This document shows, one piece after another, positions 571 through 57,192 of a DNA stretch of 64,000 nucleotides. The translations under genes were made by a program, and so were the position numbers. This DNA is from Marsupella aquatica (lineage: Eukaryota; Plantae; Marchantiophyta): positions 10,421,660-10,485,659 of the forward strand of contig OZ316893.1 in the NCBI GenBank assembly GCA_973895155.1, read 5' to 3'. Within the stretch, counting starts at the first letter, position 1. Every line of letters starts with the position of its first letter. The notes beneath the pieces were generated by a model, which saw only the letters and a program-made list of their open reading frames with translations, made no database searches and was not told the DNA's origin.

Positions 571-3500
571 ATGACAATGTCGTAGGAAGAGCTGGTGGAT
601 GACATCTTTTCGCGCCATCCTTTGACGGACTTCCACAACTCATCCTGGACGATTTCCTTAGGGATGGAAACATGGAAGAAGCCCTTCCTAATGCTGTGTG
701 TATTTGAGGGGCTTCCATCGGGGGCATTAGGGTGGGTAAATTACGGCCGCATCGATGTATTTCGACGGGGCGACGAAGTTGTGAACATGTTGATCACAAC
801 GAAGGAAACATCAACTTTGATTGTCGTGGATGTGGAGAGGTTTTCTGGAACGGCTGCCACCTGCTATCTCGATGAGGACATCGATAGCATCATTGAGACT
901 GTCAAGTCTCTTTCGAGTGAGGAACGTTACCACGACGTCGTGGGAAAGATTTCCGGTTTTGTGTTTGAATTTCACGCTAGCACTTTAAAGAGTGCAATCC
1001 GAAAATCAAGAGAGATTCTCCGGAAAAGGTCGGCAGAGAAGGGAGTAAGTCGTCCACCCAAATCTGGGGCTTCCGGTGTTCCTTCTGGATCGAGGCCTAG
1101 CATTTTACCCGATGATATTTTGACCGTGGTAGCGCCTACAACCTCCCGGGAAGCAGCAGCATCTGGAGGGGGATCTCAAGTTGGCAGATCATCCCAGGGA
1201 ACGGCTTTGACTGGTGGGTCGGCACAAGGTACGACTGGAACTCGCATTTCTTCAAAGAAGCGACCTGCTATGACTCCTGAGCCTACCGAGCCCAGTGCTA
1301 CAAAGTCAAAAAAGAAGACTTTGGAGAAAATTCCAACGCATTTGGAGCAAAAGGCTCAATCAATGTCAATGGATGCACGGGTATTGTACCAGGAGGAGAT
1401 TCTGGGAAGATGTGGTGTTCAAGAGGAGACCGTGACCGTTGACATTGGTCAACTTTACCCTCCAGTGAGAGAGAAGGCTGTGGGCTTGCCCATTTACCAG
1501 GTCCGACACATCCAACCATATTTCTTGACCCAATTGACCTTGCGGATGAAGACTGTAGGTGCCAGTCCACTTGCAGCTCCGTTTGTCCTCTTGGTGGATC
1601 CGAAGGAGTGTGCTACTAGGCAAGACTTTGATTTTTCAAGGAAAGCTGATTACCATTATTATGTGATTGGGGGCAACCATTCAGCCTGTGCCAAAGCAGA
1701 CCTTGCTCTTCAGTTCCCTAACAACAAGGCATTTCGGAGAGTGCAATCTTGGATATTTGCGGGATTGAGTGTGCAAGAGGCAAGAAACCTTGCGTGGAGT
1801 CACAATATTGATTCTGAATTTCGACAACAGATGACGACAATCCAGAGAGTAAATTATATTCACATGAGATTTGTTGAGAATGGATTGTCGTCCAACCAGG
1901 ATTTCAAGAAAGAGTGTGCTACTGAAATCAATCTCAAGGATTGGGGTGTACGAAAGGATGCTGAGGTTCTTAATGCCAATGATAACCTATTTCAGTTGGC
2001 ATTCCGACAAGATCCTGTGTGGTCATTTGTGAGGCAGATTTGTGACAAGTGGGAGATGTGTGAGATCAAAGGTCAAAAAGGAGACAAAGGCAAGAAGAAA
2101 GTCTCTAAGTCTGGAGATGCCAAATTGCCTTATGAGGACATGAAATTAACAGAGTGGAGACACATGCAGGCCTTGAAAGATCCTGATATGATTTGCCCAG
2201 TGTTACAAGAGTTCTTACTAAAGAACTCTCTTTACAGGAAATGGGTCACGAATTTACTCGACACAAATTTCAGATGCAGGTGCAGAAGGCCTTCCTCACG
2301 TGTCTACACGAGGAGAGTTGGTCAGGTTGTAAAACCAAGTACCCTGAGCATTGCACAGACAATGTGCTTAAGAATTTTGTACCTGTTTTCCAGACATGGG
2401 TAAGATTCTGTCACCTTTCTTCGAATGATTGTTTGAATTCATTTAATATTTGGAATCCTTGTTTCTAATTCTACAGTTCCTTTTTGTAGAAAGATACCAC
2501 CTCCCGGAAAAAGAAGGGAGATGAGGAAGGCAAAGATCTCAAGTCATTCCCGGACAAATTCAATGCGCATATTGTGCAAGCCCAAAATTGGCTATGCATG
2601 AAGACTTCTAGTCGGCAAACCCAAGAGGGGGAACTTCATCCAAATTCGTTTGAGCATCCAGAGTTTGGTGATGTGCACTATGATATTTTTACTCATGATG
2701 CTCAGCGATTACATGAGGTGGTTCCGGGTCGGGCTTACACATTAGCTTTAGTGGATATTCCCTACGGGTTTGCATTGCCTGGATGTCTTCATGAAGACAC
2801 TATTGGATGGGGAACTGAGGAGATCACAAAAATGGTCCAATCGTTCAAGGTGGCTACTACTGCAAAGTTGTGGCGTATTATCATTCACCACAGCCTTGAC
2901 CAATATGAGGCCATCAAGACCATTTTGAAAGCGGAGTGTAATGGAGGGTTCCAGAATTGTGTGTGGTAAGAAATATTTGTTTTTGAAAAAAACAACTATT
3001 AGTTATTCATGATTTCATGAACCATGTTTCTCAGTTTAAATAACTCCTTGACTTTTTGTGACTTTTCAGGGTTAAGGATAATGTGAAGAATGCTGGTGGA
3101 CCAAGATTGAACAGCAACTTTGAGTGCTTTACAATTGGCTTTCACAGCCAGGATGGTAAACGGTCATTGGAGCACTTCAATTTTGACACAAATGAATCAA
3201 GGAACAATGTGGTTGTATGCGCAGCTGTGACTAAGAAGCTGAAACACAACGGGGATAACAAGGCAGTGAATGTTTATCAGAAACCACGTGCATTGTTAGA
3301 TTGGGAAGTGAGTCATTTTAGTCAGGTTGGAGACTGGGTTTTGGATATTTGTTCAGGATCAGGGACTGGGACAACCTCCTCCTTGGCCATGGGGAGACAT
3401 TGCATTGCCATTGAGATTGACGAGCGACAGAGCAGTGTGTTGAAAGGGAGGATTCTTAACCTTGCAGATAACATTGAAGAGGAAGACGGACAGGGGGAGA

Positions 3501-3631
3501 TGGATGAGGAGAGTGAGGAAGACATTCCTCAGGCCGGAGAGGATAGCGTGGTTGACGATGCCACAATTGTTCCAGAATTGACGACAAGGACTTCTGGAAC
3601 CGAGGAAGGGGAAGCGGTCCCTTTGGATTAG
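571..3631 (+). pseudogene. ParB/Sulfiredoxin-like domain fused to a beta-class N6-adenine/N4-cytosine DNA methyltransferase; exons 571-2399, 2490-2965, 3070-3631
   Basis: ParB-like: VDIGQLYP..YQVR..PFVLLV..YYVIGGNHSACA..LSVQEARNLAWSHN (about 1435-1860). MTase: LALVDIPYG (motif IV, 2754-2765), spliced CVWVK, VYQKPRALL, GDWVLDICSGSGT (motif I, 3344-3367), GRHCIAIEID. GT-AG introns 2400-2489 (phase 0) and 2966-3069 (phase 2) join the ORFs in frame. Lesions: TAG at 583-585 after ATG 571, and a 1-bp frameshift near 2206. Confidence 0.85.
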
Positions 3632-13742: not shown

Positions 13743-15594
13743 CTACTTTAGCCCTGAATTGAAAATGATATCACCCCAATATTCTTGTCAAAGTTGCCCA
13801 TGAACTCTAAGGAATCCATTGAGCAGCATAAGACTTACTATTATAGAGGCAAGTACTCCCATGCACGTTTAATTAGGCTAGCTAGGATAACTAGCTACAA
13901 TGCTCTTGACATGAAGACATTTAACTAGTTTTGCAACCCTAAACCCCCATTCCTTCTATGTGCACCTAGTGCTCCCGACTCCGCAAGTTGCAAGTCAAGG
14001 GTTGTAAATGGAACATTCCGTGATGTCTAGAGTGCATGTAATCCTTCTTGCACTCTATTTCAGAATGCCGTAATGGAGAGTAGCTTATTCAACTTACATA
14101 TGACTGCCCTACTAGTGTTACAATTGCTACTTTATCAGAAGTTGTAGGAATGACTTTCACAAATATCCCCCAAAAATCAGTTGATAAAATGTAACAACAA
14201 TGACTCCCCTAAACTTGGAGTCATGTATTTTTGAAAGTCTCCCTAAAGTCACAAAGCATAGGGTCTCAAAAGGGGACGTTTTCTTCTAGTGGAGACACCA
14301 TTATGGTGTGGAGTGTATGCAATAGTGAGTTGGCGACGAATTCAGTTGGATGAACAATATTCTTGGAACTCTAAGGAGAGGTATTCACCACCTCTATCAG
14401 TTCGTAGGCATCCAACCCGAGAGGCAAATTGACTTGCAACAGAAGCGCAGAAGTTTTTGAAGGCTGAAAAACTTCTGATTTGAAATGTAGGAAATAAGTC
14501 CATGTATACCGCGTGTAGTCGTCGGTGAATGTGAGCACATGACTAGATCCCGTTAAGGAAGAAACACGTGCAGGGCCCTAGACATCAGAGTGTACCAGCA
14601 CAAAGGGCCTGGTTGTCTGAGTTTGGGAATATTTTGGAATGCGCTCACAAGTCTGCTTTGCCTCCATGCAAGTGCCACAGATTGCCGTGACAGGTGAGAG
14701 TGGAGGCACGCCATCAACTAGTTGAGAGGAACTCATGTGTTATAGCTTCTGAAAGTGAATATGGCCAAGTCGTTTGTGCCAAAGGACAGTATCGGACATA
14801 TTAGTAGTGGCAAGATTACAAGAGGCAGTCGGGGAAGAAAGAGTCCCAAGTTTCGGAGGAGGCTTGCGAACCAGTGTGTAGAAATGGGACATAGGGTCGC
14901 GTGTCCCATGCATGCAAACTTGAAGGTTTTTGTTTGGCACCATACACTGCAAAGAATTGAAGCAAATAGTGTAGCCTAAATCAGCAAGATTTCCAACGGA
15001 GATAAGACTACGGTGGGCACTCGACACATACAAACATTAGGAATTTTATTATGGTCAAGAATGAGAGTGCCCTTGCCCTCAATATCCAGTGCAGCCCCGC
15101 CAGCAGTGGCGACAGAGGACCCAGGGGCAAGAGCTACAAAGTTAGTGAGATTAGACTCGTCACTCGTGAGGTGAGTGTTGGCGCCAGAGTCGAAGATCCA
15201 TTCTGGGTGCCCAGTCTGGGGTGTGATCTCAGAAAAATTGGCCTCCAAGATTTGATCAGCAGTAGTAGTATCGACATTCTCAGGAGCGATATCAAAAAAT
15301 TCTTCAAAATCTGGATTCGAACGAGAGCCAAAGTTGGTTTTTGCAAGGTTGGTAGTACGTCCAGTACCAAGATTGGTCTGATTCAAACGAGTAGTGAGTT
15401 GCTGAAGCTCTGAATTCGAGACCACGAAAAGGGCAGTTGCAAGCAACATGGCTGGGGTCGTGGCAAGTGAAGCAGGCACCACGATTGTTGTTGTTGTAGA
15501 ATGGGGAAACACCACGATTGTTGTTGTTGTGGAATGGGGCAGCAAATCGCCCTCGGCCACCTCCATGGCCGCGGCCACGTCCCCCCGCATGGTT
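13743..15594 (-). pseudogene. Copia A gag C-terminus and pol remnant (zinc knuckle, protease, integrase), frameshifted
   Basis: CFTCHDPSHVACNC, WIFDSGANTHLT, LISVGNL, LWHKRLGH, and degraded integrase core at about 14200-14650. Confidence 0.85.
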
Positions 15595-15609
15595 GAATCT
15601 GTTGAGCAT

Positions 15610-16798
15610 AGACGCCATTTGAAATGAGATATGGGCGTCCAACGGATTACTCACATCTGAGGATTTTTGGATGTGATGCTTATGTGCTTACACCTTCCCA
15701 GCTTCGATCCAAGCTGGAGTCCAAGTCAAAGAAGTGCATTTTCCTTGGCTATTAGAAAGGTGTGAAGGGTTATAGGTTATGGGATCCAGTAACCTGTAAA
15801 CTAATTGTCAGTAGAGATGTGTCCTTTAATGAATCCATATCATCAAAGGAGGGGGAGAGTTCTCAGGACTCCCATACTGACAAGGGGAAATCTCCCATCC
15901 TGGACCGGGTTGAGGGGGAGATTAGTCATGATGTTGTTCATGACAGGAGAGATGGAGAAGCTCTGGGCTTGGAGCTGGTTCTTGTGATGGAACAAGAGGA
16001 GCAGATTGTTGCTGGGGTACCTCAAATTCAGCCAGCAGTAGTAGCAGATTAGCCTGAGTCATCTACTAGAAGAACTTCTAGCCGTTCTACTAGAGCTCCT
16101 ACCAGGTATGGTCAATGGACAGACTCATCTAAGCTAGATGATATTGACATTGCACCTGATGAAGATGTCATGGCTTTGATCTTGGAAGAAGGAGAGCCTT
16201 CTTTGTACAGTGAGGCTTGTGCTTCAGAGCAGAAGCATGAGTGGAATGCAGCAATGCAGAGGGAGTTGCAATCTTTGAGTGACAACAAGACATGGGAGTT
16301 GGTGGAGCTTCCAAGAGGTCAGCAAGTGGTGGACAGCAAGTGGATTTACAAGTTGAAGGATAGTCCTTCAGAGGGTGGAGATAAGATCTACAAGGCAAGG
16401 CTTGTTGCCAAGGGGTTCACTCAGGAGAAAGGAGTGTACTACAATGAGGTCTTTTCACCAGTGGCTAAGTATTCCACAATTCGGATCTTGTGTCAACTTG
16501 TTGTGTTTTTTGGTCTGGTGATGGATCATATGGATGTTGTTACTGCTTTTCTCTATGGCAACTTGGAAGAGTTGATCTTCATGAGACAGCCACTAGGCTT
16601 TATGAAGAAGGGCCAAGAAAACTTAGATTGCAGATTGCTCAAGTCCTTGTATGGATTGAAGCAGTCTCCCAGACAGTGAAACAAGCGGTTTGATGATTTC
16701 ATGCTTGCTCAAGGTTTTACAAGGATGGTGTATGATCCTTGTGTGTATACAAAATCAGTCAAGAATGATGTGTTTGATTTCATCATTCTGGTTATTTA
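15610..16798 (+). pseudogene. Copia integrase tail to reverse transcriptase fragment
   Basis: HLRIFGC, SKKCIFLGY, KGYRLWDP, SRDVSFNE, KWIYKLK, YKARLVAKGFTQ, MDVVTAFLYG, LLKSLYGLKQSPR. It stops just before YVDD and contains internal stops. Confidence 0.9.
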
Positions 16799-17561
16799 AG
16801 TGGTATCAGAGCATGCCTGGGCGATGACGAGGTTTTTTTGTGACAGGTTTTTTGGTATCAGAGCCCCCTTTAGGCCTATTTTAAACCTTTTTTTGCTTCC
16901 TCTTGTTTTACTTGGTGCCGGGACCTGCCGCCCTCCATTTTAATTGCTCCAACAGGGGGAACGGCCCCCTGTGAGACCTGTCGGACTGTGCAGGAATATT
17001 CTCAAAAAACAGAGACTTGTTTTTTGGCCGTCCGACAAAGATTTTGTCCGCCAAACGGTAACTTTTTTGGTTCTTTTTTGGCGAGGACGTTGCCACTGGA
17101 GTTAGCAACGCGGCGCACCGATCACATTGCGATTCCGACGACGGGTTGTACTAGGTATTTTGGTTATTCTCCAAGATGGTCAAAATGGGGGAGTTTCCCA
17201 AGGTTTTACCCACCCCGACGGAAATTTGAATAACATTTCCGTCGAATTTTGATTTTGATTTTGGCTTTCAGTATTGGACTCCTAGCTTTGTGGGTTACGC
17301 GGCGGTGTTGAGTTTTGAATTTTGTGAGAAGTTTTGAAAAAAGACATTTTTTCGTGATTGTTTCATATGAGTGACTCGGAGGATACTGGAAGAATTGGCG
17401 TCGGTGAAGCTTCAAGATCGCGACGGTCAGACGAAGAGTCTGAGGAGGAGCTGCTACCGTTTGAGGAGGAACTAGTATCACTGGTATGATCATCGGTGAG
17501 GCGTGCAGTGGAGGAAGCTGTACTACTACCAGAGCTGTCTGTAGTAGGGAAGAAGAGGAAG

Positions 17562-17966
17562 ATGGCTAGATTTGGAGGAGTGAAGTTTGAGGTGGAGAAG
17601 TACGATGGTCGTACTGATTACTTATTGTGGGAGAAGCAAGTGAAGGGTGTCCTTCAGGCCATGGGCTTAGCTCATCTGCTCTCTTCGCGAGAGCAGTATG
17701 ATGGAGAGGAGGAGATTTTTGTGAGATAGTGGAGACAAGAGCAGGTGATTGTTGTCAATGCAGTGATGCTATATCTCAAGCCACACATCATCAAGTAGCT
17801 GGATGATTATGCGGATTGCGTGTCACTGTTCAAGGCTCTAAGAGAGAAGTACTACCGGGAAGATGCGTCAGACCGGCTGTACAAGAAGTCTCTCTTGATG
17901 AGTCTCAGGCTCAAGGAAGGGAGCAAGATGCAGATCACCTGGATGAATTTGACAGTCTAGCGGTGG
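17562..17966 (+). pseudogene. Copia gag N-terminal fragment, preceded by a PBS (16853-16864) and leader
   Basis: MARFGGVKFEVEKYDGRTDYLLWEKQVKGVL is a typical Copia gag start; frameshifts and stops follow. Confidence 0.8.
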
Positions 17967-18021
17967 AAAAAACCCATCACAAAAAAACCTCGTCATCTCC
18001 CAAGCATGCTCTGATACCACT

Positions 18022-18364
18022 TGTTGAGCATAGACTACATTTGTAACGGCAAGCCATGAACCATCCAACGCACAATAGTCGACACAGAGAGATACGTGGT
18101 TCACCTCCACATGAGGCTACATCCACGGGAACACACAAGAGCTTTACTGCACTCTAGGCCGACCGGCCATACCAAGCATCCACAGCACAAGCTCTCCCTA
18201 TCTCTCAACTAGCTCCATAACAATGAGCCTAAGTTCCACCAGGGTCTGGCATCAGCCTTGGCTATATGCACAACAACACTACCGCTAACATTAGCTAAGT
18301 CCTAACCCGAGTTAGACTAACTATGGTTAGCTCATGAGTCACAAGACTAGAGCAATATCTAACA
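18022..18364 (-). repeat. LTR (343 bp) of the inserted Copia-derived element, with PBS(Met) at 18019-18008
   Basis: Minus strand reads TGTTAG...CTCAACA followed by AG-TGGTATCAGAGC. Confidence 0.85.
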
Positions 18365-19024
18365 GAATCGTCCATGGTTTGCCATAGGAAAAGCACGAGC
18401 AAACATTGCTTCCTCTCCAGCAAAAACACGAGTACCACGTCGACTTTCTTCTCCGCGAATGATGTTTTCCAATTGTGAAAAAGACGGCATATGTTCTCGT
18501 CCTGCAAGAACAGCACCAAAGGTTTCCCAACTACGAGGGAGAGTGTCAATGATTACGCCCTGCAATTCTTCATCAATGAAAGAAACTTCTACAGCAGCAA
18601 GGTCATTAAGCAGCTCATTGACAGTGCTGAAATTAGTAGCCATGGAAGCAGATTTGGGAAAACGTAGACTGAAAAGTTTCCGCTTAAGTACAACACGACG
18701 TGAAGTTGTATTGCTTGCACAAGCATTACGAATCTCTGCCCAAAGGAGTGCAGGATCATCAATTCTGACATAACGAGCAAGCATCTTATCCTCAACTGCC
18801 TTGGTCAGCATGTATAATGCTTTGTTCTGAGCTGTGCAACGCTCAGCAGGAGTGGGATTGACAGGATCATTGTGGTCAAAAATCACTCCAAGAAGATTCT
18901 CCCGCACGACATACCAAATCTTCTCCTTGATGAAACTCTGCTTCATCTTGTAGGACCATAATGGGTAGTTATTCCCATTAAGTTTCTCGTCCTTGGACAT
19001 AGAGAAATTCAAGTCCTGATTCAT
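18365..19024 (-). CDS. Copia A gag, N-terminal part (UBN2-type)
   Basis: KLNGNNYPLWSYKM, LKRKLFSLRF, IIDTLPRSWETF; interrupted at the TSD. Confidence 0.85.
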
Positions 19025-19603
19025 CGTATCGGAGTACTACGGAGAATAAATGCACAGGGAACTGTCGCCTGTGATGTCTGATCAGAAACTACTAAACAAA
19101 TACGTGAGCGATACTTACCGACTCACTAGTAAAGATAGCTACAGATCAGGAATTAGTAAACGACTACGTGAGTGATACTTACCAACTCACTTCTAGAGAT
19201 AGCTACAGTAGAAGGTGACGACCCACAGGTTTTATCCTGGGGAGGCTCTGATACCATAAAGACAACTAGAATCTTGATTCAATGAATGAATGTTTAAGGG
19301 AAACGGGGGTCCCACATATATACCCCCTGAGTGACAATCGATCAAGATACATCTAAGGGTAGAAGACAAAGACCTAAAGATCTACGGTACAGGCTAATAG
19401 CATACATACAACGAACTAGTGAATCATCACAATAGACATCCGGATAATAAGGCGTGAAATCCGGGGAGTGGACTCAGATACATGTTTGAGTACAATCATG
19501 TATTAACACTTAGAAGCGCATGATACTTTGCACAATAGTCATGGGCCAAAGTAACTGTCAACACTCTCATATGTAAAGGATCCTATATGTAAAGGATCCT
19601 TAG

Positions 19604-40009: not shown

Positions 40010-42190
40010 CTAGCAGGTCCAGGCGGACACTGAGACGACGGGGGTGTTCTGCCACCCTAGACTGAGAGCTGCACCTTCTCCAGTAAGCTTGTAGGCCCCA
40101 TTGTATAGCCCAAGCAAGAGCTTGGCCTGGTACACAGCATAACCGCTCAAAGCCAAATCCTTGAATCCTGCTTGCCGTAAACACATTTGCCAGCTCTCGG
40201 ATCGAATATGACGAACGCTGTTATGAGACCTTCCCTGTGCCAAAATGCTCCTGATATTCGAAGCGAAATGAATCTTCTCGATTCTCAACCGTTCTGTGCT
40301 AGATCTGCCAAGAGTGGCCTCAAGGCAATCGAATAAGGCGCTGTAGTGGTGCAAGGCTTCTACAAACCTGCTTAGGAAGGACGGCAGGTTATCGTTGGAC
40401 TCCACTTCCACCACAGCAACCACGACGGGGTTCAGCGAATTGACCATGTTCAAGATTCCTTGGAGAGCCCTCTGCTGGTGGTGGCGCCCCAACGACCGAT
40501 TCAGAACGTTTGCACAGTTTACTGCGAGGCTCTCCCCGAGGTGCACTCTCAGGACTCCAGCATCGAGATTCTCGAGATACGTCTCCACAACATAATTGAA
40601 CTCGAGAGGCACCTGGTGAGAAGCTGCAAATTCACAAAGACGCCTCCCCGTCTGCTGCAAAGTAGTACGATCCGTACCAACACCTGTAATTTTGAGGTGG
40701 CAAGGCTTGCCCCGCACCGAGAGAGACTGAATAAAAGACGGCCACTGCAATCCCTGTCCTATGTCGAGGTCCACCACATGGATGCGATCGTCGCAACCCA
40801 CGGCTTCCAGGATTGCCTGATTCGCCGTGAAGTGCGCAAACTTGACATACGGCACGACTTGGTAATATGCTTGGTAGGCAACATGTGAGTCCAAAGACAA
40901 AGGGCTGAAAGCCTCCGTTGACTTTGGCTGAGATGAAGCCACTGTTGTGTGAATATATGTGGTATCGGTGATCATAGCAATCTGCTCGGCGAGAGCCTCA
41001 CTGAAGTAGACTGCGATTCGTTGCATCGCATCACCGAAAGGAGAGGCCATGCTTGTCAACCGTGACAACATTTGCCTCCCGAGCTCGTAGTTCCCCTTCT
41101 CGACTGCCTCAGCACAACCTAGCAAGAGCTGCACAAGGTAGAGACCCGTCTCCTCTTGGGGCTGGGTTTCTGGCTGAGCAGCTATTACTCTTTCCTGGTG
41201 CTGAAAGCCTCCAAAACCTTCGCATTGCTTCACCATTTGACCCCCTAGGTTTCCAGTTCTGCACGACCTAAGGTCAGTATGGGACTGTCGGTTTTGAAGA
41301 GTGGTTGAGCTCTGCTGAAAATCTTCGAACTTCACCTGTACTAGATGAGAATCCAACATTTGTGACAAAGGGTCCGTCCCGACTCCAGTCTGCTCGTTGA
41401 GCAACTGGCAGAGGGGATCAGTGAGCATTTCTTGGTCCGGCTCTGGTAAGAACATCATCGCCAAATGCATATTGTCCGAAGAGAAGTTCTGCAAATCCTC
41501 AACATGAACTCCTCCCGAATTTTCCAGCTGCTGCACGCTCTCGCTACGAGAGCTTGTAAAGGAGCTCGTAGTCTGCGTATCCGAAGTCGTGTCGCCATCC
41601 AACAAGGAGTCGAGAATATCTCCGTGATCGTGAGGGTCTCCCATACAGTCTTCCCATGAAGCCGTCATATGATCATTGCCCGCATTGGAATGAAACAAGG
41701 AGACGTTAGCAAGATGGCTTTTCCTCTCGTCGCCCGGGTACGAATAGCTATCGCAATAGTTGCTCGAGAAGCTCTGCTGCCTGGAGACACTCTGAACAGA
41801 CCTCGCAGACGACGACTCTGGAGATCCATGAACTGAGCTCCTGCTCGGGCTACTGCCAGGACTAGGAGCCATGTGCATATCCAGCACAGAAGTGGGCTCA
41901 GAGAATCCGTACTGCTCCTTCTTGAGGTTCAAGGGGTGCAGGTCCATGGCTGGAAGCATGAGCGGCTCGACCATGGGAGGCAGGAAACTTGTCAGATCAG
42001 TGGAGCCCGTGCTTGTCATTGAATTCTCCATCCACATCTCGGTGTGCAGGTGATGTCTCAATGAGTTGACCGAGCTCCTCATCATCAGGCCGGAACTCGA
42101 AGACAGAGCTGGAAGGGAGCACATTTGTGGCTCCCGGTTGAATATTGGAGCAAGCTCAACAGCGCAGTTGTACAAATACCCACTTGACAT
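40010..42190 (-). CDS. GRAS family transcription factor (726 aa, intronless), most similar by eye to the RAM1-like group
   Basis: LHRI LVQLLLGCAEAV, PFGDAMQR, PYVKFAHFTANQAILEA, VHIID-type IHVVDLDIGQGLQWPSFIQSL, PFYRE-type RFVEALHHYSALFDCL, and SAW end LGWQNTPVVSVSAWTC. Intact ORF. Confidence 0.95.
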   Translation of the reverse strand: MSSGYLYNCAVELAPIFNREPQMCSLPALSSSSGLMMRSSVNSLRHHLHTEMWMENSMTSTGSTDLTSFLPPMVEPLMLPAMDLHPLNLKKEQYGFSEPTSVLDMHMAPSPGSSPSRSSVHGSPESSSARSVQSVSRQQSFSSNYCDSYSYPGDERKSHLANVSLFHSNAGNDHMTASWEDCMGDPHDHGDILDSLLDGDTTSDTQTTSSFTSSRSESVQQLENSGGVHVEDLQNFSSDNMHLAMMFLPEPDQEMLTDPLCQLLNEQTGVGTDPLSQMLDSHLVQVKFEDFQQSSTTLQNRQSHTDLRSCRTGNLGGQMVKQCEGFGGFQHQERVIAAQPETQPQEETGLYLVQLLLGCAEAVEKGNYELGRQMLSRLTSMASPFGDAMQRIAVYFSEALAEQIAMITDTTYIHTTVASSQPKSTEAFSPLSLDSHVAYQAYYQVVPYVKFAHFTANQAILEAVGCDDRIHVVDLDIGQGLQWPSFIQSLSVRGKPCHLKITGVGTDRTTLQQTGRRLCEFAASHQVPLEFNYVVETYLENLDAGVLRVHLGESLAVNCANVLNRSLGRHHQQRALQGILNMVNSLNPVVVAVVEVESNDNLPSFLSRFVEALHHYSALFDCLEATLGRSSTERLRIEKIHFASNIRSILAQGRSHNSVRHIRSESWQMCLRQAGFKDLALSGYAVYQAKLLLGLYNGAYKLTGEGAALSLGWQNTPVVSVSAWTC

Positions 42191-42780
42191 ATGTGCCTTC
42201 CTTTGCTGTGATCAACTTGGATTTTTCAAAGCAACGAGGAACACAACACAGATGGTACACTTTCTCGCTGAGCAATCCGACAGACTCGGGGACAGACTTT
42301 GTCGGCAAGAATTACCATCCCCAGCAGTCTATGATCCTCTCCTTAATGCTTTTGTCTACTGAAATCCAAACAAACTCTAAAAACATGCTTACTGAGCTAG
42401 CTACGTACCCAAGACAGAACACACCTCGCGTGACCCACTCCTTGACTACAGTGCACCAGCTCTCCAACTGGAGAAGAACACTGCGGAATTGCGTAATCCT
42501 TAGACTGAGTCAGTGAGTCACTCCCTTCTTAATAAACGAGTTCCGCCGGTCGAGCAGTTGTACACATTGGCGTGGACGACGTACACTAGTCAACCCACAC
42601 AAGCACAACGCGTGAGCATGACGGTCGAATGAGAGAGCAGAGCGAGCGCTGCCTATTAAGGGAAGAGGAGTCCGCCCCGCAGAAGAAAGAAGGCGATACT
42701 TTGATCGAGAGAGAGGAGCGATCGAGCAACGAGCAGCATGGAAGGGAAGGCATACAACGAGGGCCGACTACAGAGCGGGT

Positions 42781-45700: not shown

Positions 45701-48128
45701 TCTACACAAGCTCAAATGCATTACGTCAATTTCATTAAGCTTCCTAGTTTTCACCACCTGCAATAATTGCATTGCAGTGAATGTTGGAAAAGCTATATTG
45801 TCAGGCCCATAGTTTTTTAGCATGGCCCAACTCCATGAGTTTATGCTATCCTTGCATCTATGTCTCTGTACTTGTGAAAGATAATTCATTTTCTCTTTGC
45901 AACACAATTCCCTTGTTGGGAATATTTCTGGGAATCCATTATTAAGTCATCAAATTAGTAACCTCTCACTTCAGTTCCTCATGCAGTTCTCATGTTGATC
46001 TCAAATCGGTGCCCCCTATGATCTTAATTTATGGATTGATTTCTTTAAGGCAATCAAAAGTTAGACATTCAATCAACATCATCATTTCAAAAATAGAGAT
46101 TTTCAGTTTATATAATTCTATGTGGCTTCCAAAGTGGGGAAACCAAGCAGGTGGGGAAGAGGGTGTCACTGTGTATCAGGTTGTCAATTACAAAAGACCA
46201 TGTCCAGTCCAACGATGAATTTTCATATGATTTTAATCTCGGGGTCCTTTCTTTTCTCCCAACCCATCGTGCACAAATCAGTTAGGAAATGTTTTTGAAT
46301 TGGGCGGAAGACTTTCAAATTTTAGCTGAAAGTTATGGGTGTTCTCATCCAATTTTGAGAATTATAAGAACTGTAGGGTGTTTAATACTAAATCTACAAA
46401 TATTTCTTAGAGTACTCCATAAAGTTTTGGTTCAAAAATATTTTCCTAAACTTTAGGTTCTTTATTACTTGAACGTGACATGGGACTCTATTGGAATGAG
46501 GCCCCCAAGATTTTAATTGACCAAAGGCTTATAAGTGTAGAATATAAAAGGTGTTGACAACACAAATATAGAGATATTTGTTTTGTATGCCTTTCAAAAG
46601 TAAACAGGTCATTTTCAAAAGAGGAATGTTTCTAAAACATTCCCTTCACAAAAGAAGTTATTTTAGGTAGGCCAAAGTTGCACACAATAACCAAAAAAAT
46701 ACACCAAGTGACCCCACTACCAAGACAGTGTGGACTACAAATCTCATGAAGCTCTTTATTTAGTTGATTTCAAGGTAGGGGATTGGACTTGAGTATATTT
46801 CAACATTTTACACTGGGGTAAGAGTTTTCCACCTAGAGTCCCTTCCACAAACCTAGATTTTGATAAAGAGAACCAAGAATATGGTGTGCAAGCAACTTTG
46901 CCTCTTCGGGTCATTTCCTTGGCTGCAGGGACCGGAAAAGAATCCATCAAACATTTTCCCGACCAGTCACAGTCAGAATCTTTATCCTCATTGTCAAGTA
47001 GTGCTGGTCGGGGAAATTTATTGAACGCCTTATACCTAGTTTGGAGCTTTCTGTAAGTAGGAACAATATCACTTTTTCCACATCTCCTCGTCACGTAAAA
47101 GAGCAATAGTTAAATGTTTTTTTCACTTTTCTAACAGTATTTGGGGTTTCGTCTTTGAGTCTGTTGAGATTATTTTCTAGCAGTCCTCATGGCTGACTAA
47201 CATTGCTTTTGAGTCTTGTGTGCTCATATGGGTCCTATGACACTCCTTTGAGTAATATCCGGCCTAACTGTGTTGCTCAAATGCTTTTGGGATGTCCAGG
47301 GAAAAAATTAGAAATTAGGCAGATAGAAGAACAGCATTGTCGTGGAATTGCCCTATCTTGTGCAGCAGTGGAATGCTGAAGTGGAAGCCTCCATTCATGA
47401 AAGAATGAGGCCTGAGTATTCCTTTGCATCAACGTAGAGTGCCACTACAACACTACCTACACCTTTTGCGAACTTGAAAGCATCGCAAACAACAAAGGAA
47501 ATCAAAAAACAAAACTCGTCTTTGCGAAGTATCGCGCATCGCAATAGAATCGCAAACTGCGAAGCCCAAAGGTTCGCATCTGGTCTTTCGCAAGACCTTC
47601 GCAACGCCTTCGCAACTTGCGACACTAATAGAATCGCAAAGGACTCACATTTAAGCGACTCCATGCGCGTCGCGAGAGGATTGCGATAATAATCAAGCAG
47701 TTAAATATTTGCAATCCCATGAGTTTGGTAATATATTTGCAATATTAAGTGAATGGTAGTTATGGCATGAAGATCGCTTCGCATTTTTGTGAACTTATGT
47801 GGTTTGCATAATATTTGCGATACCTTCAGTATGGTAAATATGCGATTTGGGTTGTTCGCATAGGTTTCGCAAGATGTCTTGAGGCTAGGGTTTAGATTTA
47901 GAGTTTTGAATTATGGTTGGGGTCTTGTTGTCCAACACGGAGAATGAGGTCTGAATCAAAATTTCTTTATAGAAAATTGATAGGTACACAAAAATTAGGG
48001 TTTCCTAAACCCTAAACCCTAGATGGGTGTCATATGACAAGCTAGGTCCCTATAAGACTACCCATGATATCAAAACTATATACTACACTAAGTAAATGGG
48101 CATCCCATAGGCACTACACCACCAAGCT

Positions 48129-50095
48129 CTAGAATGGGGTCCTCCTACTCCTTGTCGCCGGCCTCTTCCCCTTGTCCCTCTTGCGACGATCCGGACGTGG
48201 CACAGGAGGTGGTGCTGGCTGCTCCTCCACATCTGGTTCCTCCTCGTCCTCGTCCTCATCCTCTTCCTCCCCCTCCTGCTGGGAAACTCCTCCTACTGGT
48301 CCAGATCCACTACTCCCTCCTACCTTGGGCCCCTTTGTCGTGGTCCCCTCATTGTTCTCATCGGTGCTGCTGGTATCACTGGCATCCTCATCATCCTGTT
48401 TGCACAGCACAACGCCAAATTGGTTTAGGTTTACGGAATGAAAAGATAAGTGGATTGGGTGGGAAAAACTGAAGGGGATACATGCACTTACAGTCGCCAA
48501 CTCTGCGTCAACCAAGTCAAAGAGATGTTTGGCTCCATGCGCAGCTCCTATCTCCATCTCTTTTGCTGTTATCTTCCTGCGGTACCTCTTATACTACCAC
48601 AACCAAACATTCCAAAACCAAAATCGGTCGAGGTTAATATGCTATAAACCCAAGAAAAATGCATGGAGGTGCTAATAGGGTGCCCCCTAGAACACAAAAC
48701 TGGGCTCAATAACCCTTAGCGGTATTTTTTAAACATAATACACACTTGCGAAACGCCCCACTTCGCAAATTCAAATAAATTGGCAGATTGCGAAGTAGTT
48801 TGCGAAGCGGGTTAGTTCGCAATAGCTTCGCATGTACAACTTTAAAAAATGCCATGATAGACTTTGCGAAACATTTGCGAAGCAACCCGCATCGCAAAAG
48901 CTTCGTAAACTCTGTTTTTAAAAAATTCTGAGAAATCTCTAAGGCACGCAATGTGTCAGGGTGACCTAAAGTACAAGGCAGGCCATAAGAAAGAAACAAG
49001 AGGTATGCACGGGGGGCATTGCAGGTTTGGATAGCAATTGAAAGCAAGGAAACAGAAGCAGGGGAGGAGAGGGCCCACTCACAAAGTGTGCTTTGAGGCC
49101 GGGAAGTCCACCTTGGCCCATCTTGTGCGTGGTCTTGGGCCGTTTGCTGACTCGCTCAGCTGCAAGGATGAATTTTTGGGGTGGTGCCCCACTTCATCCA
49201 CAATGTGCTGCATGTGAGACACCTTCTCAGCCATTGCCTTGAGGTCTCGGTCGGACTTCCCGGCCTTCTGTGCCTTGGCTTCCATCTCCTTCCAGAAGAG
49301 AAGGTTCCTGACAGCTCTCATCTGCACCTCCACTTTGTAAAAGGCATTGCACACGTCCTCAGTGAATTGCAGTGGCCTCCTCACGTTTCTGTACTCCTCC
49401 AAGTTTGCCAGGTAGGCCCTTACCTTCTTCCTATCATGGTACCGTGCTTGAGACATTGAATTGGAAATTCTATCTGCAAGCCACTGTTCATCAATCTCTG
49501 CTCCATTTCGAAATGAATCTTTGATTTGACTCATTACTTTCTTCTGGTCTGCCTTGCTGAGTTTCCCCCACTCAACTCCTCGTGCAAAATTGGAGCGCAC
49601 CATAAGCCTGATAGTGCTCTTTGCCCCGGTGTAGGCCAGTTCAGTAGGAATGCCTTCGATCAAGGCAATCATAGGCAGCTTCTTCCTCTCTTCCTCCTTC
49701 TTTCGCTGCTCCTCCCGCTGTGCTCTTATCTCATCTCGTTCCTCTCTCCTCCTCTTCTTTTCTAGGGCAGCAGGTGAGACTACTCCTGCCTTGGCCCTCT
49801 CCTCCTTCTTACGCTTCTTCTCTCTTGCCTTATGTTGAGCTGCACTCCTTTGCTCCTCCTCCCTTGCAATGTTCCCTGCATCTACTCCCGTTTGCAAGGC
49901 TTGCCCTAGGATTGCACTCAAAGAAGCAATCCCTGCTGGTGTAGTCAAATCTAAGTGGCTCAACTGTGCTGCATTGAGGTGCTCAGCCATCAAATCGGTC
50001 CATCGATTCCTCTCCTGCTCCCCATTGCCTTCATTCCCATTGCCACTGTCACTCACCCCTGCCCCATCACCTCCATTTGCTCCATTGGAATCCAT
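48129..50095 (-). pseudogene. TnpA/Ptta-En/Spm-like second gene of CACTA-2; exons 50095-49083, 48593-48492, 48395-48129
   Basis: WGKLSKADQKKVMSQIKDSF and RPLQFTEDV..AF; after a frameshift near 49180, THKMGQGG (H-x-x-G-x-G-type motif of Ptta/En/Spm proteins). Two GT-AG phase-0 introns; acidic/basic tail. Confidence 0.65.
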
Positions 50096-51395
50096 AGCTA
50101 AGCCACCCCCCGAGCGCGCGCGAGCTCCCTTCTCCCTCCCTACGCTTGAAATTTGTCAAATGCCGCTGAGTACGCCGCGGCCGAGTGCAAAAGTACAAGC
50201 GGGAAAGACTTGCGAAGCAACCCGTTTCGCAAGTTGCGATCCTTCTAGTTTCGCATGTAGTTTCTCAATTTTGCGAAACCATTGCGACATGAAAGGCTTC
50301 GCAACACCTTCGCTCTCTCGCAGAAATGCTCTCGGGCTCTGTTTTTCTGAAGGTCATGCGAAAGCATCAGCTTCGCAAAACTCAATTCTAATTTGTGACG
50401 GTATTTGCGAAGGAAGCGGCTTCGCAAGACATTGGCAACTCGTCCTGGGGGGGATGTTGGTTTCATTTGAAAGGGTTTTTTTCAAAGGTGAAGTGGACCC
50501 CTCTATACTCATATTTGGAATGCTTTTTGGCCATGTTTTGGGTGTTAGATAATAGTTGAAGGCGGGTTTGAAGGGTTAGGCAAATTTCAGGTTAATGGGT
50601 TATGTATGGTGTTGGTTTAGGCTAAGGTTTGGGTTTACATTAGTTTAGAAGAAATAATAAAGGTGTGGGATTTGGTTTACAAGAAATAAGTAAGGTTTGG
50701 GTTTAGGGTTTTAGGGTTTGGGGTTTTTAAATAGAAAGGTCTCTAGGGTTGAAGAAAGGTTTGGGTTTGTGTGTAAGTCAGATTTAGGTTTAATAGGTAG
50801 GATGCGGTTTGGGGTTGAAGGTTTGGATAAGACAAAGCAAGGTTTCATGAGATTTATATTGCAGCCTTTTGGGTTTAAGAGAGGTTCATTGGGTTTATGA
50901 ATCAAAAAGGGATTGGCATGGGTTTTGCTAACAAAGGAGGGGAATATATGATAGCTTGCAGGGTGCGGCACTTTTTGATGATTTGATACTAATGCATATG
51001 CATTGTGAGAGCTCGGGCATCTGAAAGGTAAACATTGCATGATCGGCTCAAGTGTTCCTTTCATGTACTTAATAGTTTTGGTTGCCACTATGTATAAAGG
51101 GGACATGTATATAGGGTTTTTTGTTCTTGTCTGGTCCAGATTATTGTGCTTACATATACATGGAATGGTTGCAGCTTTTCCCTCATACTTTCAGGTTGGG
51201 TTCATTAATTATCTTAGAGCCACAAGACCATTTGGCACTGCTGAGCCCGGGTCTCATAAAGGTACCTTTTTTATTGCTATGGTCATTTTGGTTTGGGTTT
51301 CTTGTTATCATTATTTGGGAACTTTGATTTATATCATTTTGTGGTATGTTTTGGTCATAACATGCCCATTTTAATTATATCTTGTTACAGGGGAT

Positions 51396-52542
51396 ATGTC
51401 TTCATCTTCTGAAATCTCCACCACAGACTCGTCCTCCTCTGATGAAGATACACCACCTCAACATCACACGACCGCACCTCCTCCTCGCGGTCCACCCGGT
51501 CAACTTTGTGAATGTTCCAGATGTGTGGGTCAGGTTTCCCAAAAATCTTACATATGTGCCCAACATATTGAGAGATATGGGCGTTGTGGACGTCATACGG
51601 CAGGGGCTTCTTCATCTCATATGGTAAGTGTTATGCCTTAGTTTTCCTACCCTATTCCCATTACTCAATGGTTGAAGGTTTTTAATTTCACACCTACTTT
51701 TGTTTGTTTTGGTTTCGGTGGAATAGGTATCCAATAGGCCTAGACCTGCGGCACAAGCACCCTATGTCCCATCACAAGGTGTTCTAGATGCTATAGGCAA
51801 TGCATTCTCAAAAGCCTTGGGTCTAGCGGCAAGGCCCACCAGTCCTAGGGAAGTTGGGGTTGAGGCTATTGTCCCAAGAGGGAGAAAGCGTTCCAAGAGG
51901 CGGGCCCGAGGGGATACTGATTTGTACAAGGCAGTGGTTACGGGTAGGTGGGGTGATTGTGAGTTCACTGGCAGATGTGTTCCTATCATCAAGGACTGGG
52001 ATCCTGAGACTCTTGGTTTGCCACAACAGCTTTCCTACGGTGCGGAGGTAGAGGTTTGGGGTAGACGTTGGGTTATCAAACCTTCCACACTTGGGGATAG
52101 ACATGGCTATGGAGTTTTTGCCTGTGAGGACATCATTGTGGACGCCGAGAGTGGTAGAGGTGGACGCGGCCGAGAGGGGCCTACTTTGTTTCCTTATGGT
52201 GGACCCATCTACAAGAGAAGACATTGGAACATGATCCTTGCACAACACCCTGAGTGGAAGACTTATGCATTGGACATGGATACTTTTGATGGAAACACTA
52301 GAAGGTATAGTGAGCAGCGTGTCATAGATGGGGACCCCATACGGACTGGGAATATTGCTGGTTTCATAAACAGTACCGTGGGGACTCGCCCTAAGCGTAG
52401 GCAAAATTGTGAGTGGGTTTTCATTGAGGGTCCTCCGCCAGCACCTTATGGCCAGACATATCATCATGACCATTGCCTAGTTTTAGCAACGAGGACCATT
52501 AACTCAGGGGATGAGTTATTTACTCACTATGAGTGGGATTAG
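51396..52542 (+). CDS. Transposase-associated Zn-finger plus SET-domain protein (exons 51396-51623 and 51727-52542; 347 aa)
   Basis: Exon 1 CECSRC..ICAQHIERYG is transposase-associated-domain-like. Phase-0 GT-AG intron. Exon 2 has SET motifs IKPSTL..GYGVFACEDI, PYGG, IDG..GNIAGFINS..NC, LVLATRTINSGDELFTHY. No stops. Confidence 0.85.
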
Positions 52543-52718
52543 GGTTAAGTTAAGGGTCATAGGTGGTATGTTGCATATCAAAGGACACTACATATGGCCT
52601 TTGGCCACATTTTGTATTTGCACCACAACCAATATTATTTCATTTTTGCACACCCCTAGCCCATTTTTGTGTGTGTTCTCTTTGCAATATAACTTTCAAT
52701 TGTTTGCTTTGTTTTTAG

Positions 52719-55700
52719 AATGTGCGACCTTCTCCAAATATGTTACCACGGAGATTGAGAGCAACATATTGAGAAATGGGTATGCCAGAAGAAGGACATG
52801 GATCAGAGTCACACTCCTCATCAAGTGCTAGTGGAAGTAGTAACCCTGATGAAGAGGTACCTCGGACGGATGAACAAGTAACTGATGACCAGGATAGAGC
52901 CATGGATGACTTCATGGTTGATTGGTTTGGTGCCGACAACCCTGGTGATGACCTTCCCAATGAAGGGCAGGTGCCCCCCAATGATCCACGCCCAAGACAT
53001 ACCCCTGAGGGACAACGCCAATGGGAAGAAGCAGAGGAACATGCCCGAACACCTATCTATGAGGGTGCTCGTTTGAGTCGTCTTTCAGCCATCTTGGGGT
53101 TGATGAACCTACAAGCCAAACACAAGGCAAGCAATGCCTTGTTATCTGATATGTTTGCACTTTGCCATGACCTTATGTTACCCACTGAGAATGTGTTGCC
53201 AGCAACTTGGAAGGAGGCAAAGAGTGTTCTTTCATCTATTGGTGTGGAATATCATATTGTTCATGCATGTGTGAATGATTGCATGTTATTTCATGGGGCC
53301 AATGCAAACATGACACAATGTACAACATGTGATGAGCCTCGCTATGACCCCAACATGCTAACAAAGAAGGTGCCAAGGAAGGCTGTTCGTTGGTTTCCCA
53401 TCATTCCTCGGTTGTTGCACATGTATCGGTGTTCTGACTTGGCAGAGTTGATGGTATGGCATAAGACTCATCGATCAGAGTCTGGTGTCATGCGGTTGCC
53501 AGTTGACTCCCCTGCTCACAAACATATTGAGGCAACATGGCCAGACTTTGCACGTGATCCTCGCCATGTGAGGCTAGGATTGGCATCTGATGGAGTTAGC
53601 CCTCATTCACTTGGAGGAAAGGGGCAACCTACATCAGTTTGGCCTGTGGTTGTCATGAATTATAACCTCCCACCATGGCTATCCATGAAGAAGGGGTTCT
53701 TTTTATTGTCTTTGATTATCCCAGGTCCAAAAAAGGTGAAGAACTTTGACACTTACTTGGCACTATTGGTTGGAGAACTTCAAAAATTATGGAATGGAGT
53801 GTGGGCATATGATGGCAGGAAAATTACAAGAGATTTTCCACGTGTCTTTCAATTGAGAGGGATCATTTGTTGGACAATGCATGACTATCCTCACTGGTAA
53901 GATGACTTCCATGCCATTTGCAACCCTTCAATAATGTGTAGTTCCTATTGTTGTTTCCCATGTGACAACCCTAACATAAAGTTTGCATGGTTTGATTTCT
54001 TCTATGTAAGCAGGGTTTGGTTTTGTCTCTGGATTGCAAACTCAGGGGTACAAAGCTTGCTCTACTTGTGGCCCAAGCTTAGAGGACATGGCCACATATT
54101 GTTCATGGATTAGAAAGATTGTTTATATTGGGCATACAAAGTTTCTTCCCATGGGGCATGAGATGAGGTTTGACCCACTTCTATTCTCCTCCTTTGACAT
54201 GCCATTTGGTGATGAGCGTGAAATTCCTGATGCAACAAGTTTTGCACATTGGAAGTCACTAGCTGATAGGGTGGCAGACCCAAATGATTCCTTCACCTTT
54301 GATAGGACAGGTTTGACCAGGTGGAGTATACTAGCCACTTTGCCCTATTGGTCTGAGTTGAAGATCCGCCATCTTTTAGACCCCATGCACATAGAGGGAA
54401 ATGTGGGGAAGGCTTTGATAAAGCATTTTTATGGGGAGAAGGACACTAATTTTAGGGAGGCATGCGAGGAGATGAAAATGCATCCAGATGTTTGGGTGAC
54501 AACTGATCCTATCACAGGTGTGGAGAATCGTCCTTATGCTCCTTGGGTGTTGAGTGTTGGCCAAAGACGTGAATTTTGGAACCGTATAGGAGAGATGCGG
54601 TTTCCTACAGGCTATGGTGCCAACCTTCGAAAAGCTTTTGGGATGGAGGACAATCACAAGTGGCCACGATATCTGAAGACACATGACTATCATCGCCTAT
54701 TGCAGCATATATTGCCAGTGGCAATTATTGGTATAGGGAGTGAAGAAGTGCAAGATGCCATCTGGTCATTGGGTCGTTTGTTGAGATGGATATGCTCAAA
54801 GGAGATATATGTAGAAGAGATCCCTGGGATGGAAGTATTGGCAGCTGAGGTGGTATGCAAGTTGAAGAAAGCCCTTCCTCCTTCCTTCTTTGATTGTCAG
54901 GTTCATTTACTTGTGCATCTTGTGCGGGAGGTTGCCATTGCAGGTCCAGTGCATTGTAGATGGATGTATTGGCTTGAGCGTTACATGGCGGTGTTGAAGG
55001 CTTATGTACGTAACCGTGCACGGGTGGAGGGAAGCATAGCTACAGGATACTTGGCAGCAGAGAGTATGTTTTATTATAGTAACATCTTGGCCACCATTGA
55101 TCCTACTTGTCCACGTACTTGGATGGAGGAAAGAGAAGAGGAGGAGGACCGTTTAACAGGTGCCACAAAAACACGCATGTTGACATCAACAGAGTGGTCA
55201 CAGTTGACAACATTTATGTTGAGTAATAGTAATATCATGGAGAAATGGAGAGAGTTTTATGAGAATGCCAAGAGATCAAGTCAAAGAGCAAGAATTTTTC
55301 CTAAGATGCATGAGTATATGAAGCAAAAGTTGCTTGAGTTGGATGACATGGTGACACAAGGAGGAGATGTGTCCCACTTTCCTACCATCACAGATGACAT
55401 TCGGACCATTGTTCATGGCCCTTTGAGAGTGGTGACATCCAAGACGGCTATGTGGACACAAGGGAGACACTTCAGATCCACTAGTACCTAACCTTTCTTC
55501 CTCTATTAATTCATGTAGATCTTATTTTGATTAGTTATTTCTATTGTTTAAAAACTTTCTATTATCATTAATGACATCCATAACTGTAATGTTGGCTTCT
55601 ATATTTATGCCATAGGCCATGTGGGTTTTGGCTATTTAGGGATGGGTGTCATATTTTGATGATTATTACATTAATGGTATCTTTTGTGTAATAAAAATTT

Positions 55701-56210
55701 GTGGGTTTTGTTAATTTCAGGGTTTCTTCCCTTGATGAGAAGAGGGGTCGTACTTTTGATTGTGGAGTTCAAGGGGAATTTTCTCAAGACTCCAGAAGCA
55801 GCCGCCATGACAGGAACATTGTTAGAGATGTTGTGCCACACTATGGGAAGATAGAGGAGATCTTGGTGGTATCATATGACAACCATTCAAAGTTTGAGGA
55901 ATATGTCTTCAAGTGCAAGTGGTTCAAAGTGAACCTTGTTGGTCAAAATTGCACTGTACTTCAAGATGAGAGTGGGTTTACACGGTTGAAGACAAGTGCC
56001 ACTAGTGTTCAAGCATCTCATTGGCAAACGTCAGAACCATTTGCTTTCCCATCACACTTGGAGCAATGTTTCTACATTCCATACCCCTTAGACACCGAGT
56101 GGTCAATTGTCATCACCTATGTGCCACGTTCTCGTTCCATTGTTTCTGAGAAGCCAGATGTTATTGTATCAGACCTAGATGACCTTGAGGCCGATGAGGA
56201 CCAAGTGTGA
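52719..56210 (+). pseudogene. CACTA Tnp2/TnpD transposase; exons 52719-53896, 54014-55475, 55721-56210 (first exon probably 51396-51623)
   Basis: HACVNDCMLF, CTTCDEPRY, FPIIPRL, RHVRLGLASDG, YNLPPW, MHDYP, LDPMHIEGN, RWMYWLERY, FKCKWF. Lesions: TGA at 52770, 4-bp insertion at 53892-53895, AT instead of GT donor at 55476. Confidence 0.92.
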
Positions 56211-56439
56211 GGGACATATTTATATGCACTTGGGTCTAGCCTAGACATTTGTTCATGTTATATTTGATTTGTTCATGTTTGGTGATATAAAAAAAAGTAT
56301 TGTCTATATTTATATTTGTCATTCACTTTTGAATGAGTCATACTCATGACATATGTATTGAATTGTTTTATTGTGATCACTTGTGAATTTTACATGCAAC
56401 TTTCTATCTAACCTCTATTGCTCAATATAACTTTATTTC

Positions 56440-56645
56440 CTACTTATTCCATAATTTTCATTCTCACCCTCGTGTTTCCCTCCTTCGTGGTACGTCTGTC
56501 CCTCCTCCTCCCTTCCTCTTTCTCCTCCCTCCTTCCTCTTCCATTGTACTCCCTCCCTTTTCCATCCTTCATTGTACCTCCCTCCATCCTCCCTTCCTCT
56601 TCCCTCCTGCCCCATCCATATATTGGACCATCCACCCTCTTCATT
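56440..56645. repeat. Low-complexity polypyrimidine (CCT/CT-rich) tract inside CACTA-2
   Basis: About 200 bp strongly C/T-biased on the + strand. Confidence 0.8.
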
Positions 56646-57192
56646 GTCTCACCTCACAATAATCTTAATTTTTAGTTTGCGAACAATTTGCGAAGCTCAC
56701 AAACTCTCACCAGACTCGCAATTTCTATGAAGCTTTTCGTTTCTCAATATTTCCATACTATACTCTTTGCAAACTTGTGATGCAAAATCAATCACACATT
56801 TCATATTCTCACCGTTTCGCAAATCTTCCATCCTCCGACATTCTTAAACTTGTCAAACAACTACTATCGCAAAACATTTTCAATCCAACCTTCTTCGCAA
56901 ATATTTACATGAGTTAGTTTCGGAGTCGGCGAGCGATTTTCCCGTCTTTAGAAGGCGCCTTTCCATTCGGCGCGTTTCGGTAAAACTTGCAAAACCACTT
57001 ACTTTGCAACGTATTAGCGATATAATGCGCTTCAAGTATTATATTTGCGATAGGGGTAGAATCGCAAATTGCGATGCAGGTTGATTCGCAAATTATGCAA
57101 AGCGCCGCCCATCGGAAATACAAGAGCGTCGACAAAAATACCTTCGCAAAAGTGTCAAATATGTTGTAGTGTGTAGCTTACTCTGTTGTGAA

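Follow-up and report, generated by a model that had tools for sequence, protein, structure and literature searches.

A conserved SET-domain exon in a CACTA element of the liverwort Marsupella aquatica and its predicted sharing of a first coding exon with the transposase

We analyzed a 64,000-nucleotide (nt) stretch of the Marsupella aquatica genome (contig OZ316893.1, forward strand, positions 10,421,660 to 10,485,659; hereafter the window), which contains a CACTA/EnSpm element of 9,729 bp at 47443–57171. The CACTA termini form a 10-nt perfect terminal inverted repeat (TIR), and the flanking TGC and TGT may represent a 3-bp target duplication with one mismatch. Three exons encode a TnpD-type transposase, with the domains PF02992, PF13960, and PF13952 all above the Pfam cut-off. 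Between these exons and a first coding exon that encodes a Cys/His knuckle lies a SET-domain exon with its own stop codon. The SET exon is element-borne, under selection, and family-wide, and in-frame sites for both splice routes, from the knuckle to SET and from the knuckle to the transposase, are conserved. Sequencing depth over the whole element, including the SET exon, was 1,370–3,400 compared with 71 in the flank (run X2), which fits a multi-copy family, although depth is not a copy count. The features that carry the argument are as follows.

47443..47452, + strand: left TIR, CACTACAACA, with TGC just before it
51391..51623, + strand: first coding exon, ATG at 51396, 76 codons, phase-0 donor
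51624..51726, + strand: intron to the proximal (SET) acceptor, 103 nt, GT..AG
51727..52542, + strand: SET exon, 271 codons and its own stop; basic linker, pre-SET segment of ~40 residues, minimal SET domain
52543..52718, + strand: non-coding spacer ending in the distal (transposase) acceptor, 176 nt (136–147 nt in relatives)
52719..53896, + strand: transposase exon A, PF02992; private stop at 52770 and 4 surplus bases near 53890
54014..55475, + strand: transposase exon B, end of PF02992, and PF13960; the next donor reads AT at 55476
55721..56210, + strand: transposase exon C, PF13952
57162..57171, − strand: right TIR, a 10-nt perfect match to the left TIR, with TGT just after it

A sequence-only reading of this DNA had proposed that exon 1 ends in phase 0 (ATG/GTAAGT at 51623) and can be joined in frame to an acceptor at either 51726 or 52718. 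The phase-0 end is borne out, with 76 codons from the ATG at 51396. From the acceptor at 51726, 271 codons follow in phase 0 up to a TAG at 52540–52542, so that the joined product comprises 347 amino acids (aa). The coding exon is as described, but it is the first coding exon rather than the first exon, since there is an acceptor 5 nt upstream of the ATG, and a related locus (L002) conserves two exons farther upstream. The acceptor at 52718 is also in frame, but in this copy the transposase frame stops after 17 codons (TGA at 52770–52772) and runs on for a further 375 codons beyond that stop. The TGA is private to this copy: C replaces T in 1496/1496, 4363/4393, and 280/280 depth units of three runs, and 24 related loci all encode an amino acid at this position (21 Arg, 2 Gln, and 1 Trp) rather than a stop. 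Compared with relatives, this copy has two further lesions, namely the 4 surplus bases near 53890, which shift the donor phase, and AT in place of GT at the exon B donor (55476). The three transposase lesions noted earlier are thus real and the SET exon is intact, but the asymmetry between them is at chance level. Three lesions in ~3,130 coding nt give an expectation of 0.8 in the 816-nt SET exon and a probability of ~0.46 for none (hand calculation), and the asymmetry is therefore no evidence. A three-part knuckle-SET-transposase fusion that keeps Tyr268 is ruled out, because no phase-0 GT occurs between Tyr268 and the stop. Separately, a GT..AG-ended joint at 51629/51758, found in one run, was rejected as a splice; it is not the predicted junction, and it is read as a divergent sister family because its loose end runs into SET-exon-like sequence.

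The layout recurs in relatives. A metagenome scan yielded 44 related loci, which were picked by SET motifs; most of them match Sphagnum proteins closely. The transposase exon lies directly 3' of SET in 26 of them. Of the remaining 18, 13 run out of sequence no more than 130 nt past the SET match, one continues for 228 nt, and four extend for kilobases without a transposase, all four of these having truncated or weak SET matches. The knuckle exon is present in 19 loci, and its phase-0 GT is found in all 17 whose match reaches the last codon. A single in-frame AG lies 111–118 nt past the donor in each of the 15 loci holding the SET exon start. The end of SET and the beginning of the transposase are both present in 24 loci; all 24 retain the SET stop and 22 retain the far AG (at precisely the same site in 21, and with a codon missing after it in one), the remaining two having point changes. 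The intron and spacer sequences have diverged, yet similarity restarts at the AG acceptors. In sister families from other runs, similarity likewise breaks just past the SET stop and restarts at 52716. The spacer at 52543–52718 likely also holds the 3' end of the SET message.

The evidence from protein databases takes the form of gene predictions. In a survey of 170 SET-family proteins, 16 match the knuckle profile and 7 have downstream transposase sequence. The order knuckle-SET-transposase recurs in Riccia gene models that are 35–45% identical, some of which, as predicted, would fuse SET and transposase in one protein. Nine of the 12 database proteins with a knuckle have it joined to SET. A 423-aa protein on a 2,141-nt contig carries the knuckle and SET in one frame, and it may represent a spliced transcript or an intron-less copy. 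Named close relatives come from Sphagnum, Calypogeia, and Riccia, and the liverwort and moss SET proteins are 66–79% identical to the Marsupella aquatica copy. Synonymous divergence to Sphagnum-type copies is 0.7–1.3 (51727–56210 against L001–L043 and P0001), which is low for the moss-liverwort split and may indicate horizontal transfer of the element. Introns have also been gained or lost among close families: a second CACTA element in the window lacks, at window position 5423, the last transposase intron (55476–55720 in the SET element), and three Sphagnum-type loci (L010, L014, and L018) have an extra intron within exon B.

The ratio of non-synonymous to synonymous divergence (dN/dS), measured against the majority codon of the related loci with L002 and L044 left out, is 0.16 (0.10–0.26) in the SET core. 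The values for transposase exons A, B, and C are 0.10, 0.15, and 0.14, and that for the knuckle is 0.18, while the pre-SET segment is looser at 0.56 (0.23–1.29). Neutral decay of the SET exon, which the sequence-only reading had set against its own proposal, is not seen between lineages, and the low ratio, which points to purifying selection like that on the transposase, indicates that the exon was kept during the active period of the lineages. A Pack-CACTA-type fragment of a host gene, captured passively and drifting neutrally, would agree with one set of counts. In the SET core, variants common to at least two Sphagnum-type loci are near neutral (19 synonymous and 61 non-synonymous, ratio ~0.97), as they are in exon B (6/20) but not in exon A (31/56, ~0.53). 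These counts may stem from re-assembled alleles together with recurrent C-to-T changes in dead copies. The dN/dS of 0.16 between lineages at a synonymous divergence (dS) of 0.7 largely refutes such a capture; moreover, the exon occupies the same position in families that are only 35–45% identical, and its 132 relatives, described below, include no canonical host SET among the 9 named of 30 looked up. We thus regard a captured fragment as very improbable. Stop density is 2.9 per 1,000 codons in SET and 4.3–5.1 in exons A and B, in loci that were picked by SET motifs. As a separate observation, dS of the SET core (52045–52539) is 0.70 (0.49–0.95), lower than the 1.30 (0.95–2.05) of the next transposase exon; silent-site constraint in an alternatively used exon and exchange between families are both possible explanations.

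The first coding exon encodes a Ser/acidic stretch followed by a C38-x-C40-x2-C43...H57...G62 knuckle resembling the N-terminus of CACTA TnpD proteins. A search for long relatives of the transposase returned 76 proteins, all named ones being from flowering plants, and 50 of the 76 have the same C-x-C-x2-C, His, and Gly spacing at their N-terminus. Profile comparison of the knuckle with the flowering-plant TnpD N-terminus gave an hhalign probability of 87.9% (E 3e-6), in a comparison set that was chosen by its Cys pattern. Our own knuckle profile scores 8.7 bits for this copy and up to 16 for relatives, and the Pfam transposase-associated knuckle (PF13963) does not match that of the element. 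The evidence that the knuckle is the transposase's own N-terminus is therefore good without being clean. Because of this resemblance, the transposase message should use the knuckle exon and skip SET, which would give a product of ~1,100 aa, as in flowering plants.

In an alternative without a shared exon, knuckle-SET and the transposase would be two genes, the latter starting at a Met seven codons past the far acceptor. That Met occurs in 24/24 Sphagnum-type loci, and a direct knuckle-transposase exon join is found in 0/12 knuckle-containing database proteins. However, similarity starts exactly at the AG and spans the codons before the Met, where N, R, P, and S are kept with silent changes; the Met is absent from some Riccia models; and the N-terminal Cys knuckle of 50/76 flowering-plant transposases also speaks against a separate start. 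Two independent genes appear improbable on this evidence. Alternative splicing of one pre-mRNA is, in turn, very probable, as judged from the conserved sites.

A profile search of 1.84 billion representatives returned 132 relatives of the SET exon, and nine of the 30 looked up have an organism name (six Riccia, two Calypogeia, and one distant Ginkgo). The distant family members P0240 (Ginkgo Gb_21150), P0178, and P0184 (Calypogeia) have different N-termini. The exon itself scores above the PF00856 cut-off in Pfam (25.3 versus 22.4 bits). An AlphaFold2 model built from 86 sequences reached a predicted local distance difference test score (pLDDT) of 92.7; it replaced an earlier 25-sequence model with a pLDDT of 57, which had given merely weak SET matches. 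Similarly, single-sequence and narrow-profile searches of the PDB gave no match, whereas the 86-sequence profile did. The comparison with SET structures that the sequence-only reading had called for thus returned a SET fold. Foldseek placed SET8, LegAS4, and MLL1 at the top (E ~1e-7), and VIA-align gave Z 11–12 to EZH2, SET1, SET7/9, ASH1L, and SET8, with root-mean-square deviations of 2.3–3.0 over 117–135 residues. Since all SET classes tie within Z 10–12, the substrate is not readable from the fold. The analogy once drawn with the chlorovirus enzyme vSET and H3K27 methylation receives no specific support, as the model is equally close to SET1, EZH2, SET7/9, SET8, and LegAS4. vSET (3kma) was matched with the superseded weak model alone and is absent among the matches listed for the good one. 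No relative of the SET exon was found in the viral contigs searched, and viral SETs match at 15–23% identity; in a comparison by features, a SET cluster from giant viruses is a close look-alike outside plants (0.96). One bacterial locus was a generic SET protein matching over 36 residues.

The GxG motif, the N-S in place of N-H, and the terminal ELxxxY are confirmed as first described. In the 86-sequence set, the motif residues are retained in most relatives: G127 in 68/73, G129 in 72/74, Y/F157 in 77/77, N215 in 76/86, N227 in 84/84, E263 in 74/76, and Y268 in 69/75. The cofactor-binding glycines, Asn215, and Tyr268 persist down to ~25% identity. The last residue of the model aligns to residue 338 of SET7/9 and 339 of SET8; provided that this end contains no gap, Tyr268 corresponds to Tyr335/Tyr336. 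In solved SETs, a C-terminal segment closes the cofactor and lysine pocket. The present protein, like its close relatives, ends 3 residues past Tyr268 without this C-terminal (post-SET) flank, and pocket closure would have to involve a partner, a dimer, or the internal insert. This is a weightier caveat than the N-S change, and the sequence-only reading had passed over it.

The missing lid is one of two features that favor a pseudo-enzyme, in which the SET fold would bind a histone tail or S-adenosylmethionine (SAM) as a reader or decoy without methyl transfer. The other is the N-H motif, which has Ser in 82/86 relatives and His in none. Retention of the cofactor glycines, Asn215, and Tyr268 at such low identity argues the opposite. 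In addition, LegAS4, which has Phe at the place of the N-H His, is an active H3K14 methyltransferase (PMC10653858), and N-S for N-H therefore need not kill activity. We accordingly consider a pseudo-enzyme unlikely, and give somewhat better than even odds that knuckle-SET catalyzes lysine methylation.

Taken together, we favor the following explanation, to which we assign a probability of roughly 0.55 as a whole. One pre-mRNA would yield knuckle-SET (347 aa) through the near acceptor and an early 3' end, and knuckle-transposase (~1,100 aa) through the far acceptor. Knuckle-SET is predicted to be a SAM-binding lysine methyltransferase, which would be recruited to the chromatin of element copies by the shared knuckle or by some other protein of the element. 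Its marking would keep the family transcribable, as an enzymatic counterpart of anti-silencing by TnpA and VANC, plant transposon accessory regulators that activate their own elements (bioRxiv 2026.08.24.746577). An activating role is favored by analogy with these two regulators, and an activating mark on the element's own chromatin is tentatively suggested. That an old land-plant CACTA clade carries a histone lysine methyltransferase as a knuckle-targeted splice isoform of its transposase, writing a protective mark, is a somewhat more doubtful proposition still.

The opposite role would be a self-limiting switch, in which knuckle-SET acts as a repressor like the truncated P-element product: use of the near acceptor would lower transposase output, and SET would write a repressive mark or methylate the transposase. 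The acceptors are mutually exclusive and the near route ends in its own stop, as such a switch would have it, and splicing control has been described for P and Ac (PMC4158355). EZH2 ties as the best structural match, and many liverwort transposable elements bear trimethylated H3K27 (bioRxiv 2022.10.24.513474). On the other hand, SET1, SET7/9, and SET8 match just as well, and VANC and TnpA act as activators of their own elements. We consider the repressor unlikely.

Several of the observations weigh against the self-marking explanation itself. The reads examined (7 of 16 runs) are genomic in character and the contigs cross the introns as DNA, so that splicing is predicted from the DNA. To this must be added the missing knuckle-transposase join among database proteins, the knuckle's mismatch to PF13963 and a comparison set chosen for its cysteines, the near-neutral variants of sibling copies, the substituted N-H His, the absent C-terminal flank, and a fold that does not disclose its substrate.

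If the self-marking explanation is true, the element would be the first known case of a transposon opposing silencing through histone methylation, and one splice choice would toggle it between moving and self-marking. In the passages covered, the function of transposon-borne SET genes has so far been merely proposed. With multiple copies of the family in mosses and liverworts, and with model bryophytes open to transformation and chromatin profiling, it becomes directly testable whether transposons write histone marks to escape or tune silencing. The exon-sharing layout would also be a new way for En/Spm elements to obtain a regulator out of their transposase gene, and the unusually short-tailed SET could show the minimum C-terminal flank for catalysis.

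The left part of the element contains two further features.

48132..50095, − strand: divergent element gene, comprising ORF 49082–50095 and part of ORF 48132–48593 (ORF, open reading frame)
50991..51261, + strand: two likely 5' untranslated exons, with a donor after 51027 and the second exon at 51195–51261

An in-frame TGA lies just upstream of the first 5' donor (51027). The upstream exons are 78–85% identical to L002, and in sister families conservation stops at their donors. The divergent gene matched no Pfam or NCBIfam family; it lies upstream of the knuckle exon in 11/44 related loci, at 48–60% identity. No TnpA-type accessory protein was found in the element by Pfam, and the divergent gene matches a PF03004-bearing protein at merely E 3. 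Its helical region weakly resembles TnpA-type motifs (E 3), and other copies have one more base at 49186. An Rfam scan of the element gave no match. Elsewhere in the window, an intact 733-codon ORF at 40010–42211 (− strand), ~5 kb from the element, encodes a putative GRAS transcription factor, to judge by its motifs. Copia-type retroelement fragments at 14976–19277 include protease, reverse transcriptase, and gag-like ORFs, with inverted repeats resembling primer-binding sites.

The second CACTA element has its right end at 6671. It carries a spliced gene at 586–3631 (+ strand) that terminates with a domain of the N6/N4 DNA methylases (PF01555, 37 bits; CcrM-like at E 2e-10). The N-terminal ORF of this gene has no Pfam or PDB match, and it may be ParB-like in appearance. 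The gene lies just upstream of a transposase exon that shares 81% identity with its exon B counterpart in the SET element. A methylase gene beside a transposase parallels the methylase and ParB accessory genes described for red-algal Plavaka elements (bioRxiv 2025.02.11.637652).

Among known systems, vSET, phaeovirus SETs, and LegAS4 likewise have no pre- or post-SET Cys clusters and share the fold (E 2e-8 to 1e-5). Identity to these minimal viral and bacterial SETs is merely 15–27%, with no close relative among them, and the present protein has an added pre-SET segment and two inserts. In SETMAR/Metnase, a domesticated host fusion, a single chain contains both SET and transposase; the likeness lies in having both sequences at one locus, and the SETMAR SET domain matches the model at Z 8.3. 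Here, by contrast, the SET exon has its own stop (24/24 loci), has no phase-0 donor past Tyr268, and sits within a mobile, multi-copy element, which upholds the earlier view that the two architectures differ.

The implied novelty of a transposon-borne SET is greater than warranted, since SET cargo has already been described in four transposon groups. It is known in HarbingerS and oomycete MuDR elements (PMC12730594) and as captures in Helitrons (PMC12730594; bioRxiv 2025.02.11.637652). These belong to other superfamilies and hosts, and the portions of the papers available describe them as incorporated accessory genes and make no mention of exon sharing. The red-algal Plavaka PAG2, also of the EnSpm/CACTA superfamily (bioRxiv 2025.02.11.637652), places SET on a DNA transposon as a proposed chromatin modulator, as here. 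PAG2, compared by its description only, is a separate gene combining an N6-adenine methylase with SET in a three-gene cassette, whereas in the present land-plant element, which is of the TnpD type, SET forms one exon of the transposase gene. Paper searches found no SET exon nested in a land-plant TnpD gene, with Repbase reports and bioRxiv supplements, which may list one, outside their scope; the available part of bioRxiv 2024.09.22.614159 contains nothing on this layout.

Further counterparts are maize En/Spm and Arabidopsis EN/SPM3, which have in common with this element the CACTA termini, the TnpD domains, and, likely, a 3-bp duplication (here with its one mismatch) and one transcript giving both a transposase and a regulator. 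En/Spm makes TnpA and TnpD by alternative splicing of one gene (PMC13547354; bioRxiv 2026.08.24.746577). Its second product is the helix-turn-helix protein TnpA, whereas here it would be a SET domain, encoded within the first coding intron and sharing the knuckle. Transposon SET cargo and En/Spm alternative splicing are thus known, and the nested, shared-exon SET layout appears to be new.

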